Sequence record: MK373794.1
Reading direction: 5' to 3' (one strand)
Origin: Escherichia phage vB_EcoS_HdK1
Length of the DNA stretch: 64,000 bases
Positions 24,349 to 27,857 of this stretch are shown one piece after another. The notes beneath the pieces were generated by a model. It did no database searches, had not been told where the DNA came from, and was given only the letters and a program-made list of their open reading frames with translations. Positions within the stretch are counted from its first letter, which is position 1. Each line of letters starts with the position of its first letter. A program made the position numbers and the translations under genes.

Positions 24349-27300
24349 ATGCCACCAGCAATAATTGGAGCTGTAGTTGCTATCGGGGCAGCGGCTGGCG
24401 CAGCGGCAGGTATTATCACAGCCACTACCGCGCTTGTGATTGGTATTGCTGCCAGTGCTGCTGGAGCTCTACTTACAAAAACTCAGAGCTATAACTTTGA
24501 CTCCTATACACCTCAGAGCGAGCGTAAACAGGTTATTCGTGCCGCCGCTGCATCTAGAACTGTGATTTATGGGACAACTGTGTCTAGTGGTGTTCTTGTA
24601 TTTGCAGAAGAAGAACCAGGAGTACAAGATCCAGATAAACACGGTGAGAACTACGAGAAGTTGACTCTTGTATTGGCGTTAGCCGGACACGAACTGACAG
24701 AAGTAGGACAAGTGTGGTTAGGGGACGATCCAATAGGTACTTATGCTGGAAACGCATCCTATAAGGTATACAACAACCCTACTACGGTCAGTCAAGACAT
24801 GTTAAATCGTTGCCCATCATGGAAAAGGGACATGATTGGTAAAGGTATCTGCTGGATGCAATTGAATCTAGTATATGATTCACAGAAGTTTCCAGCTGGG
24901 CTTCCTAATGTCAAATGTGTTAAGAAGGGGAGAAAAGTTCTAGACCCTAGAACTGGTCAGATGGTGTTTAGCAATAATGCCGCCCTTGTGATTTTGGACT
25001 ATCTTCGAGTGTATCTTAAACGCGGAGACGATTCAATTCTTTGGGACCAGTTCAAAGAGGCCGCTAACATATGTGATGAAAGAGTTAAGAACGCGGATGA
25101 CACGTTTGAATCCCGGTATACTATCAACGGGGAATTTGACATGGATGAAGCACCTTCCAAGATCCTGGAAGACATGCTTGACGCTTGCGGTGGGGAGTTG
25201 ACTTATATCGGCGGTAAGCATGGTATCCTAGTAGGTGCATATTACGGGCCTCCTGAATTAACTCTGGATACGAGTTGCATTGCTGGTGACATTAAAATCA
25301 CACCAGAGACAGCTTTTAAAGATCGAACTAATACAATCACAGGTACTTACATCGATCCTCTGCAAAACTATCAAGAAGCAGACTTCCCGTCTGTAAGTGT
25401 TTCTGAATGGGTACAACAAGACGGTCAAGAGATTACACAAGACGTCGATTATCGTTTTGTCACAAGCCCATATCAGGCTCAACGTCTAGCTAACTTGACG
25501 TTGAAACGCAAACGTATTGGTCGTTCCATCGAGATACCATGTAACATGCGTGGGTATCGTTTCCGTCCAGGTATGTATGTCTACGTTGACATTCCTAATA
25601 TTGGAATGAACAAAGTAGAGATGCGTGTTATTAAGTGGCAGTTTGATCCGAAAGGTGGTGTCACTGTAACTGTACGTCAAGACTTCCCGGACTTATGGGA
25701 CGATGCAATTGGCAAACCTGTAGAGCGACCAGATCTAGTGGATTTGCCTACTGGTGGCGCTATGCAACCTCAGAACCTACAATATGAAGTCTTACAAATT
25801 AGCGACGTTGTACAGGGTGTTCTGTCGTGGCAAAATATAATGGCTGTAGCCTACAACAACGTAGTAATTAAGAAAGATGGTACTACCGTATTGACGGTGC
25901 AAGTACCGGGCCAGAGCACGCGGATTACGGGGCTTATTCGCGGCGCTTATACAGCACATGTGAAAGCTGTGGCGTATACCGGCGCAACAAGTCCAGAAGC
26001 GTATCTTGAATTCAATATTCAAGCACCTTCCGCTCCTACGTCTGTTGAAGTGACGCAAGGCTACTTCGCAGTAACATTGAAACCAAAATCTGCAGATCTA
26101 GCTAACGTTAGTACACAATATGATTTCTGGACGTCCGGTGAAACAAGATTACCATCCGCCGCTGTAGACGTTGTAGAACGACAGGCCACCCGTGCTGGTA
26201 TGGGCACAACGTGGACTTCAGAGGGGTTGCTTAATGACCACACTTATTACTGGTACGTGCGGGCAATTAATGCTTTTGGTTCTTCTTCATTTGTAGAGGT
26301 GGCTGCAAGATGCTTCACAGATGCTGCTGGCCTTATTCCGCAAATTGACACAGAGTTCAAAGGTACTAACACCTATAAAGAACTTATGGCTGAGATTGGA
26401 AGCGTCAGCGATGGTGTCAAGAGTTATGTGGACGACCAAATTGAAACCTCTGAAGGGCGCTTAACTCAAACAATAGATACAGTGCAACAATCTGTAGTTC
26501 TTGTTGACGGTAAAGTGCAGCAACAAGGCGTCACAATCAATGAACAGGGGCAGTTAATAGATGCTCAAGGTAAGTTAATTGAGACAAACGGCCAACAGAT
26601 TAATGTGGTCAAAGCTACCGTACAGGAAGTCAGTAAGTCCGTTGTGGATCTTGAAGGTAACGTCAACGCTCAGTGGGGTGCCAAGATCCAGGTGGATAGT
26701 AAAGGTCAAAAATACGTTGCCGGTATTCAGTTAGGTATGGAAGGTTCCGGTGGAGCTATCCAATCTTACTTTATGGTCAACGCCAACAACTTTGCTATCT
26801 ATAACCCAACTAACAGCACAGCGGATTTAGCATTTGCAGTTAAAAACGGTCAAGTGTTCATGAAGGCAGCGTTCATTGAGAACGGTTCTATTGATAATGC
26901 TAAGATCGGTAACTATATTCAATCTAACAACTATGTAGCTGGTTCTGCAGGCTGGAAGTTGAATAAAGCTGGGGATGCTGAACTGAATAATGTTGTCGTG
27001 AGGGGTACGGTATATGCCACAAACGGTAGATTCACAGGCGAGATACAAGCAACTAGTGGGACATTTAAAGGTACAGTTGAAGCAAGTAGATTTATCGGGG
27101 ATGTAGTCGCAATCTATACTTTCCCAGATATATTAAGTATAGGTACGGATATTTCCGGTGAGCAATATAAAGTATACACTTATAATGACTCGTCATCCTC
27201 CCCACAAGCAAGATCTGTTGTATTTGATTGTATAGTGAGAACTACAAATACTACAAATGGATATAAATTAAAACTAACATTAGCAGGTCAATATAGGGAA

Positions 27301-27477
27301 TATGTATTCTATCAAACTAATACTATGATTCCTATAAAATTCGGAGTAAGTGGAGTTACAACACGTAGTATACAACTGATTCTGGATACAGATAGGGGTA
27401 GTGGTACACATATAGATATAATAGCACCGACATTAACAATAGGGAGAGCTAGTGGTACTTTCACTGTAAGTGGATAA
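24349..27477 (+). CDS. tail tip / host-specificity protein (J-like) with glycine-zipper N-terminus
   Basis: 1,042 aa; N-terminal hydrophobic Gly/Ala-rich segment; large size and position after the minor tail genes. Confidence 0.65.
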   Translation: MPPAIIGAVVAIGAAAGAAAGIITATTALVIGIAASAAGALLTKTQSYNFDSYTPQSERKQVIRAAAASRTVIYGTTVSSGVLVFAEEEPGVQDPDKHGENYEKLTLVLALAGHELTEVGQVWLGDDPIGTYAGNASYKVYNNPTTVSQDMLNRCPSWKRDMIGKGICWMQLNLVYDSQKFPAGLPNVKCVKKGRKVLDPRTGQMVFSNNAALVILDYLRVYLKRGDDSILWDQFKEAANICDERVKNADDTFESRYTINGEFDMDEAPSKILEDMLDACGGELTYIGGKHGILVGAYYGPPELTLDTSCIAGDIKITPETAFKDRTNTITGTYIDPLQNYQEADFPSVSVSEWVQQDGQEITQDVDYRFVTSPYQAQRLANLTLKRKRIGRSIEIPCNMRGYRFRPGMYVYVDIPNIGMNKVEMRVIKWQFDPKGGVTVTVRQDFPDLWDDAIGKPVERPDLVDLPTGGAMQPQNLQYEVLQISDVVQGVLSWQNIMAVAYNNVVIKKDGTTVLTVQVPGQSTRITGLIRGAYTAHVKAVAYTGATSPEAYLEFNIQAPSAPTSVEVTQGYFAVTLKPKSADLANVSTQYDFWTSGETRLPSAAVDVVERQATRAGMGTTWTSEGLLNDHTYYWYVRAINAFGSSSFVEVAARCFTDAAGLIPQIDTEFKGTNTYKELMAEIGSVSDGVKSYVDDQIETSEGRLTQTIDTVQQSVVLVDGKVQQQGVTINEQGQLIDAQGKLIETNGQQINVVKATVQEVSKSVVDLEGNVNAQWGAKIQVDSKGQKYVAGIQLGMEGSGGAIQSYFMVNANNFAIYNPTNSTADLAFAVKNGQVFMKAAFIENGSIDNAKIGNYIQSNNYVAGSAGWKLNKAGDAELNNVVVRGTVYATNGRFTGEIQATSGTFKGTVEASRFIGDVVAIYTFPDILSIGTDISGEQYKVYTYNDSSSSPQARSVVFDCIVRTTNTTNGYKLKLTLAGQYREYVFYQTNTMIPIKFGVSGVTTRSIQLILDTDRGSGTHIDIIAPTLTIGRASGTFTVSG

Positions 27478-27481
27478 AAAA

Positions 27482-27507
27482 TAGGCGCTCTATCGAGCGC
27501 CTATAAT
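27482..27507. terminator. bidirectional terminator hairpin between convergent genes
   Basis: taggcgctc tat gagcgccta perfect stem; T-rich tracts on both strands (strong T-run on the minus strand). Confidence 0.55.
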
Positions 27508-27798
27508 TTATTTACAACCTTCAGACCAACCAATACGGTTCATAGCCGGTGAGCAATCAGGTTTGACTTTTTTACCTTTCATCCACTCAGCTTTAGCTTT
27601 ACCAGCGGTAGTACCTTCGTAGATGGAAGTCTGGTGCTCAATGTTACTTACTCCACCAGTATGCCCGCCTAATGATGAACCACTACCAGGACCACCAGCT
27701 CCACCATTACCTGGACCACCAGTACCACCGGAAGGACCAGTCGCGTAAGCAAAAGTAGCAGTCATAGAAAGGATAATGGCGCAGATTAAAGTCTTCAT
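27508..27798 (-). CDS. small secreted glycine-rich protein encoded antisense between tail tip and tail fibre genes
   Basis: ATG at 27798 with AAGGAG RBS; signal peptide MKTLICAIILSMTATFAYA; mature part Gly-rich with two C-terminal Cys. Confidence 0.55.
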   Translation of the reverse strand: MKTLICAIILSMTATFAYATGPSGGTGGPGNGGAGGPGSGSSLGGHTGGVSNIEHQTSIYEGTTAGKAKAEWMKGKKVKPDCSPAMNRIGWSEGCK

Positions 27799-27829
27799 TT
27801 CGAACTCCTTTATGTTTGTGTGTAACAAC

Positions 27830-27857
27830 TATATAGGGATATAATTTAAGATGTAAA
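27830..27857 (-). promoter_or_regulatory. sigma70-like promoter candidate for the antisense secreted-protein gene
   Basis: Minus strand reads TTTACA-N16-TATATA about 30 nt upstream of the RBS. Confidence 0.3.

Follow-up and report, generated by a model that had tools for sequence, protein, structure and literature searches.

In small siphoviruses of Escherichia coli, a change of receptor comes about when the cassette at the end of gpJ, the gene for the central tail fibre or tail tip protein, is exchanged for another, and the characterised exclusion factors of such cassettes (Cor, Llp and Rtp45) are all lipoproteins. Here we analyse a locus of this type in Escherichia phage vB_EcoS_HdK1 (record MK373794.1), in a stretch of 64,000 nucleotides referred to below as the window, which is a Nonagvirus (Queuovirinae) genome of the JenK1/HdK1 type. 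The element under study is a small gene on the minus strand, convergent to gpJ, which has export signals without a lipobox, an independent promoter and terminator, and which moves between phages together with the gpJ tip. By analogy with the factors named above, we consider it on balance probable that its product is a non-lipidated periplasmic factor of superinfection exclusion or receptor inactivation, aimed at the receptor of the gpJ tip. An exclusion role is what specialists would expect at such a locus; what is new is the non-lipidated occupant and the association of one factor with many tips.

Among the described systems, Llp of phage T5 is a periplasmic lipoprotein of ~61 residues with one disulfide, which binds the plug of FhuA and folds the extracellular loops over the pb5 site (PMC9586334). 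The HdK1 protein resembles Llp in being small (~77 mature residues, of which ~47 are conserved, against ~61), in its single Cys pair, in its predicted periplasmic location and in adjoining a receptor-binding gene, and AlphaFold models of the free protein are unreliable for both (PMC9586334). It differs in that Llp is an outer-membrane lipoprotein with a separate receptor-binding protein, pb5, and the receptor FhuA, whereas here there is no lipobox and the partner would be the gpJ tip. Rtp45 is a ~6-kDa lipoprotein with one disulfide, which binds the periplasmic interface of LptDE, places a hairpin in the lumen and displaces EL4 and EL5 (PMC12685063). It comes from the same type of locus in related small siphoviruses (bioRxiv 10.64898/2026.04.02.716166), has a Cys pair and acts periplasmically (PMC12685063), but it is lipidated and accompanies a separate receptor-binding protein, Rtp44, whereas the HdK1 protein is unlipidated, directly follows gpJ and shares no sequence similarity with it. 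Cor of T1 is a FhuA-directed lipoprotein (PMC13164509), and the Cor proteins of T1, phi80 and N15 are likewise small exported proteins tied to the host-recognition region, in both lytic and temperate phages; unlike the HdK1 protein, which belongs to PHROG 2243 and has no homology to Cor, they are lipoproteins from a cassette with two upstream membrane-protein genes (PMC13164509). Set against Llp, Cor and Rtp45 as a type, the HdK1 protein is thus a small exported protein with a Cys pair, presumably disulfide-bonded, beside a receptor-binding determinant and 30 nt from the gpJ stop, and it has neither their lipobox anchor nor homology to them.

The BASEL papers place superinfection-exclusion factors at this locus (PMC8594841), and two further protein families were found in the same slot. 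One is a lipoprotein, PHROG 12984, encoded in the same orientation in 9g (L003 5686..5919, minus strand), KurtStettler/Bas22 (L017 3414..3647, minus) and Enterobacter phage AS5 (L018 2954..3190, minus), where it is annotated merely as 'lipoprotein' or 'hypothetical protein'. It shares with the HdK1 protein its position, orientation, hairpin terminator and two Cys residues and is similar in size; the J tips that it accompanies belong to the same fold family, and it is better conserved than they are (9g and AS5: lipoproteins 64% identical, tips 29%); moreover, T1-like phages share homologous 5' signal-peptide codons among the slot families (AS5 and BHUENT2). It differs in having a lipobox (LTAC/LSAC/VGCG), an unrelated mature sequence and LamB-binding tips, its function being predicted. 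KurtStettler/Bas22 has been found experimentally to depend on LamB (PMC8594841), and PHROG 12984 is a candidate LamB-directed exclusion lipoprotein.

The other is a second secreted family that is not lipidated, present in GS166 (a Salmonella Tlsvirus, L019 2978..3247, minus strand; an 89-residue open reading frame (ORF) unannotated in the record) and in Enterobacter phage BHUENT2 (L024 1667..1927, minus). It carries the signature ...ATAQxRxIDxC...VKPC...PEQKFxxPFR and is again more conserved than the tip (GS166 and BHUENT2: secreted proteins 45%, tips 35%); its signal peptides are nearly identical to some of those in the HdK1 family (P0066, P0071, P0074), while the mature parts are unrelated. 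In HK97 (L025 1885-2091) J and the side tail fibre gene, stf, are 207 bp apart with no ORF of at least 20 residues and a signal peptide between them, though the tip is 9g-like (LamB), indicating that the slot gene is an accessory, without which such a tip can still be made and can function. Sim of phage P1, by its description, is a Sec-processed soluble periplasmic exclusion protein of ~21 kDa when mature, which blocks a post-adsorption step and is unlinked to a tail-tip gene; it is like the HdK1 protein in having no lipid anchor and unlike it in size and genomic linkage. Because Sim is soluble and periplasmic, a lipid anchor is not required for exclusion.

Anatomy and conservation of the small gene

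The gene and the elements belonging to it lie as follows:

27828..27857, minus strand: sigma-70-like promoter, TTTACA-18 nt-TATAGT, matching the consensus at 10/12 positions
27805..27810, minus strand: Shine-Dalgarno sequence AAGGAG, 6 nt 5' of the ATG
27508..27798 including the stop codon, minus strand: small-protein gene (PHROG 2243), 96 residues, MKTLICAI...SEGCK
27742..27798, minus strand: signal-peptide codons, residues 1-19, MKTLICAIILSMTATFAYA, with a predicted signal peptidase I cut after AYA
27655..27741, minus strand: Gly-rich disordered linker, residues 20-48, of variable length, with a predicted local distance difference test score (pLDDT) below 50 in AlphaFold2
27511..27654, minus strand: conserved mature domain, residues 49-96, GVSNIEHQTSIYEGTTAGKAKAEWMKGKKVKPDCSPAMNRIGWSEGCK, with invariant or near-invariant columns and with Cys82 and Cys95
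27481..27504, no strand assigned: hairpin terminator between the convergent stops of gpJ and the small gene, with a 10-bp stem, 6 GC pairs and T6 on the minus strand

The first-pass annotation of this DNA had proposed an antisense ORF of 96 residues between the tail tip and tail fibre genes, and a real and constrained gene is indeed present there. Its product matches PHROG 2243 (function unknown) with E = 5.5e-30, residues 1-96 aligning with profile positions 3-86 of 87. Among 5.8 billion proteins, a single-sequence search recovered 57 relatives and a profile search 84, every one from a phage-sized contig or an enterobacterial assembly; the family comprises 84 clusters at 90% identity and only 15 at 50% identity (exhaustive hidden Markov model search, 1.84 billion representatives). 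In the conserved domain the ratio of non-synonymous to synonymous substitution rates (dN/dS) is 0.02-0.16, with synonymous sites near saturation, and the window differs from the Queuovirinae-type relative L022 by 20 synonymous and 4 non-synonymous changes. In alignment A3, which includes seven Nonagvirus and prophage sequences, the GAG of the Shine-Dalgarno sequence is invariant and the AAG is at least 90% conserved.

That the ORF arose by chance and is no gene could be argued from its shortness, from its antisense position between two large genes and from promoter-like sites that are no commoner in the region than expected from shuffles. However, strong purifying selection, the PHROG match, and the retention of the start, ribosome-binding site, signal peptide and Cys residues across divergent phages speak for a gene, and we give the chance reading practically no probability, since this pattern of conservation already refutes it. 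A longer ORF starting from a TTG (27828) was rejected because every homologue begins at MK, and the plus-strand ORF 27623..27748 (41 residues, Pro-rich) is a mirror of the Gly codons of the small gene and not a separate gene. In the records of relatives the gene is labelled 'hypothetical protein', and across the region 27300-28300 the window is 98.4% identical to phage JenK1 and 96.7% identical to HdSG1.

Export was assessed by rule-based sequence analysis of 72 full-length members of the family. The signal peptide of the HdK1 protein has K2 in its n-region, a 10-residue hydrophobic core (mean Kyte-Doolittle hydropathy 2.58) and the site AYA/TG at residues 19/20, and the same layout for Sec and signal peptidase I, in which a basic n-region is followed by a hydrophobic core and by a site of AxA type at residues 19-22, recurs in 72/72. 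Cys6 precedes the h-region and is Tyr in some relatives. A canonical lipobox, [LVI][ASTVI][GAS]C, occurs in none of the 72 members, and the protein was therefore rejected as a lipoprotein. The classical signal peptide with a cut after AYA, the lack of a lipobox and the two C-terminal Cys residues, all described in the first-pass annotation, thus agree with the family as a whole: C95 is invariant in alignment A1, and C82 is present in at least 90% of sequences.

The Gly-rich mature region described in the same annotation is present in the HdK1 protein (residues 20-48) but is not a conserved trait. Its DNA is an imperfect 24-nt tandem repeat of 2.1 copies at 27679-27729 (Tandem Repeats Finder), the length of the linker differs by 0-24 residues among close relatives in alignment A1 and by 29 in HdSG1, and most relatives lack the Gly tract or have different low-complexity sequence (Ser/Asn/Gly-rich in the more distant members) in its stead. 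A search of the PDB with the mature protein returned matches to synthetic Gly/Ser linkers only. From the sequence comparison the Gly-rich region appears to be a dispensable, slippage-prone linker rather than the functional core, which is probably formed by the C-terminal ~47 residues.

This C-terminal domain has the conserved core GVSNIExQTxI[YF]ExT..GK..AEW.KG, predicted to form a helical hairpin, and a Cys-bounded loop that differs by subfamily (PAMNR[VI]GWSEG as opposed to WNxNLMRGGxxDP). AlphaFold2 modelled the mature domain, from 33 sequences, with pLDDT 66 and a predicted TM-score of 0.31, as a helical hairpin plus the Cys-bounded loop; the model of the full protein (pLDDT 51) was not used for fold search. 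With the mature-domain model, of moderate confidence, Foldseek gave 0 hits against the PDB, and a profile search of all PDB chains (copy dated 2026) returned only phosphoglycerate kinase, at E = 2. The protein had no match in Pfam or in PADLOC and only sub-threshold ones in NCBIfam (TafF, E 0.22; ExtJ, with 22 bits where the cutoff is 52.5, in an alignment to the first 57 residues and thus across the signal peptide), and no paper characterising this protein family was found. The GWSEG of the Cys loop loosely recalls what we take to be the TolB-box region of E-type colicins, as the Gly tail presumably recalls colicin translocation domains; we give these resemblances no weight, and GWSEG is absent from the second subfamily (NLMRGG...).

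The composition also brings to mind a secreted Gly-rich antibacterial peptide of the class IIa microcin type, in view of the size, the Gly-rich tract and the two C-terminal Cys residues; colicin V is Gly-rich and has a C-terminal disulfide. We regard this as very improbable: the Gly tract is absent from most members, the leader is a Sec signal peptide and not a double-glycine leader, with Sec export ending in the periplasm, the gene is flanked by gpJ and stf, neither an exporter nor an immunity gene lies close by, and no bacteriocin family of Pfam or NCBIfam is matched.

As for transcription, the first-pass annotation had credited the gene with its own promoter-like element and a strong terminator. 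The promoter is identical in all seven Nonagvirus and prophage sequences of alignment A3, its -10 element is kept in more distant and unrelated phage backgrounds, and L022 has TTGACA-17-TATGGT, with a perfect -35 and a 17-nt spacer, despite divergent flanks. Nevertheless, only 3 promoter-like sites were found in the region where 3.4 are expected from shuffles, so that the element is weak when taken alone. The claim of a promoter is thus sustained by conservation and not by the number of sites. The terminator is as strong as had been stated. gpJ and the small gene converge with 30 nt between their stop codons, and the gap (27478-27507) is filled by the hairpin, of about -21.8 kcal/mol with its flanks; 4 terminator-like sites were found in the scan against 1.0 expected, and a strong hairpin is present at this slot in 11/11 folded loci, including 9g and KurtStettler, with differing stem sequence. 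The minus strand has an efficient T-tract, the plus strand a weaker one. Late gpJ transcription may read through the hairpin into stf, antisense over the small gene, and, speculatively, might serve as a late shut-off.

Exchange of the gene with the gpJ tip

The flanking genes of the window are these:

24349..27477, plus strand: gpJ-like central tail fibre or tail tip protein, 1042 residues
27106..27477, plus strand: C-terminal 124 codons of gpJ, which form its variable tip (here allele A, JenK1/HdSG1/HdK1 type) and presumably the receptor-binding domain
27885..31551, plus strand: side (lateral) tail fibre gene (stf), whose 5' end is the right-hand conserved flank of the cassette

Compared with J of 9g and of the L008/PD328 type, gpJ of the window is more than 90% identical over most of the first ~900 residues and 12-31% identical thereafter, the variable part being only the last ~115-124 residues, with a DNA breakpoint at 27106. 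The small gene is convergent to gpJ directly after its stop, with the hairpin in between, in 19/19 loci, which include Queuovirinae-like phages (Nonagvirus-type among them), E. coli prophages and T1-like phages. The Queuovirinae-type loci with a slot gene are L008-L011, L020-L022, PD328, JenK1 and HdSG1, and the T1-like ones are L012, L013 and L023; the lambdoid prophages L004-L007 lie in the E. coli chromosome beside ompW-yciCBA-tonB-yciI or acs. Conservation near receptor-binding genes in relatives, which had been suggested as a check, is therefore found, with Klebsiella phage HSE3 (discussed below) as the exception.

The small gene is physically and evolutionarily coupled to the J tip, as several pairwise comparisons demonstrate. 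Between Nonagvirus L008 and the prophages L004-L006, whose J bodies are ~18% identical, the sole shared block is 1.1 kb at 89% identity. One end lies 173 nt upstream of the small gene, so that the block takes in the promoter and the 5' end of stf, and from there it continues across the gene and its terminator into the last ~207 J codons. T1-like L023, which carries this family, and Tlsvirus GS166, which carries the unrelated secreted family, are 84-86% identical either side of a swap, and the non-homologous segment consists of the last ~150 J codons, the terminator and only the mature part of the small gene. Homology restarts within the signal-peptide codons (L023 6001-6059 against L019 3189-3247), and the junction falls in these codons also for N5822 and BHUENT2 (L015 5902-5927 against L024) and for AS5 and BHUENT2 (L018 3159-3190 against L024). 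The alignments suggest that a different mature domain arrives along with a different J tip and is joined to the promoter, ribosome-binding site and signal peptide already in place. The hypervariable end of gpJ and the exported protein thus form a cassette that is exchanged horizontally as a unit, in line with the 'bona fide RBP locus' of small siphoviruses as defined by Maffei et al. (2021). Between the window and PD328, by comparison, the swap involves the tip only: homology is lost over 27106-27507 and comes back exactly at the stop codon of the small gene.

These comparisons bear on the possibility that the gene is a moron in the manner of lambda Bor and Lom, with a host-directed role that has nothing to do with phage entry and might concern envelope stress, serum resistance or colonisation, inserted at a permissive site. 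Its own promoter and terminator and its presence in E. coli prophages would fit such a role, and lambda carries the moron lom downstream of J. Against this, most carriers are strictly lytic (Nonagvirus, Drexlerviridae), so that lysogenic conversion is irrelevant there, the complete module is found in only 2/5,426 complete E. coli genomes, and the mature domain swaps along with the J tip; we therefore hold a moron of this kind to be improbable.

On the other side of the cassette, stf of the window is split by an extra G at about 28196-28198, where CAGGAAAT of JenK1, HdSG1 and 9g has become CAGGGAAAT. The frameshift leaves the ORFs 27885..28220 (cut at 111 residues) and 28117..31551, as opposed to a single coding sequence of 3663 nt in JenK1, and the extra G is either a sequencing error in the G run or a genuine frameshift as in stf of laboratory lambda.

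Tip alleles and candidate function

We postulate that the small protein is expressed from a separate host-type promoter, so that its synthesis does not depend on the late tail operon and is constitutive in lysogens, and that it is exported by Sec and cleaved after AYA to give a soluble protein, which would reside in the periplasm. The mature protein would consist of the flexible Gly-rich tail and the ~47-residue domain, probably closed by a C82-C95 disulfide, and may attach, on the periplasmic side, to the outer-membrane receptor that the neighbouring gpJ tip recognises. A receptor bound in this way would be unusable for adsorption, so that the infected cell or lysogen would exclude phages on the same entry route and the progeny would be spared loss on debris. 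The first-pass annotation had suggested an exclusion logic like that of Cor and Llp, and this is supported by the joint transfer of the gene and the J tip from phage to phage, as well as by the literature on such loci; the analogy does not extend to homology with Cor, Llp or Rtp45, to lipidation or to a dedicated tip, as one family accompanies five tips.

These tips are distributed as follows: tip A in the window, JenK1, HdSG1 and ESCO3, tip B in PD328, L004-L011 and L020, tip C in L012, tip D in L022 and tip E in L023. They are 18-45% identical to one another and all are paired with one small-protein family, tip E with a subfamily 44-50% identical to the rest. In searches with tips A, B, D and E no close relative was found in any characterised phage; tips A and B are 30-36% identical to the tips of HK97, KurtStettler and 9g, and tip E is 35% identical to that of Gifsy-2. 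In the HK97/KurtStettler/9g class the J end itself is the receptor-binding domain (PMC8594841; bioRxiv 10.64898/2026.04.02.716166).

Several points weigh against an exclusion factor directed at the receptor of the tip. The mature domain is 78-98% identical across the phages with tips A-D while the tips themselves are only 18-34% identical, and a strict one-to-one pairing of tip and factor was rejected, there being no quantitative co-variation between them (Spearman 0.12). The tip-only swap fits one and the same receptor with fast-evolving tips, and it equally fits a target that is independent of the tip. The proven superinfection-exclusion factors of this type are, without exception, lipoproteins anchored to the outer membrane, and a soluble protein would need high affinity to remain on its target. 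Pfam, NCBIfam, PADLOC, a profile search of the 2026 PDB copy (8A60 and 9RPS being the entries cited in the literature on these factors) and Foldseek revealed no similarity in sequence or fold to Cor, Llp or Rtp45, and the two structure models reach pLDDT 51 and 66, a low to moderate confidence. For every member of the family, moreover, the exclusion phenotype and the binding to a receptor or other partner are predictions from sequence. Finally, HSE3 (L014, 7488..8583) has two genes between J and the gene of this family.

Concerning HSE3, its gpJ stops exactly where the tip domain of the E. coli phages starts. It is followed by a 112-residue ORF, gp052, possibly a detached tip domain or the result of a frameshift, and then by a fibre gene with a peptidase S74 chaperone domain.

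The same pattern of tips gives some weight to another explanation, namely that the protein blocks, in the periplasm, a post-adsorption step (passage of the tail tube or DNA) via a shared periplasmic or inner-membrane entry factor or via ejected tail proteins, in a way that would resemble P1 Sim, T4 Imm/Sp or HK97 gp15. The solubility of the protein and its freedom from a lipid anchor agree with this, as does the fact that one family serves five unrelated tips and survives tip-only swaps, as expected for a target common to the lineage; in addition, a receptor screen of 2026 revealed that subgroups of siphoviruses require DcrB, SdaC and MetQ, which are proteins of the periplasm or inner membrane, in a taxon-specific way. 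However, T1-like phages exchange the mature domain with the J tip while homology is kept in the backbone, which includes the J body and, presumably, the machinery for entry, and the module crosses between Nonagvirus and lambdoid prophages with unrelated tail and tape-measure proteins, which is hard to reconcile with a backbone-specific target. We consider such a block the chief alternative and possible, though unlikely. With a factor directed at the receptor of the tip, one conserved factor beside many tips is what is expected if the tips race against variable surface loops of the receptor while the exported protein binds its conserved periplasmic face.

The alleles that have been linked to receptors are FhuA, BtuB, LptD, YncD, LamB, TolC and FepA, and JenK1, HdK1 and HdSG1 share a distinct allele that matches no known receptor (Maffei et al., PMC8594841), the one Nonagvirus allele that could not be matched in that work. 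In the 2026 screen, which included no JenK1-type phage, distal domains of GpJ were linked to LamB, TolC or NupG. A more specific possibility, which we advance tentatively and think rather unlikely in its full form, is that the family represents a new class of soluble periplasmic exclusion factor, whose ~47-residue Cys-stapled domain recognises a conserved periplasmic feature of a receptor or entry factor that is not on the E. coli list, and which gives cross-protection against five or more unrelated tips. By analogy with the hairpin of Rtp45 in LptD, the barrel of the receptor might be entered from its periplasmic end by the disordered Gly/Ser/Asn tail.

If the receptor-directed proposal is true, the protein would be a ready-made affinity handle for finding the receptor, by pull-down or co-purification. 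This family and the second secreted family, found in TolC-type relatives, would then mean that soluble periplasmic proteins can do the same job as the known lipoproteins, and annotators would gain a wider search image beside receptor-binding genes. The association of many tips with one factor, which is seen also in the LamB class, suggests that the exported family may predict the receptor better than the fast-evolving tip does, with a bearing on receptor prediction and phage engineering.

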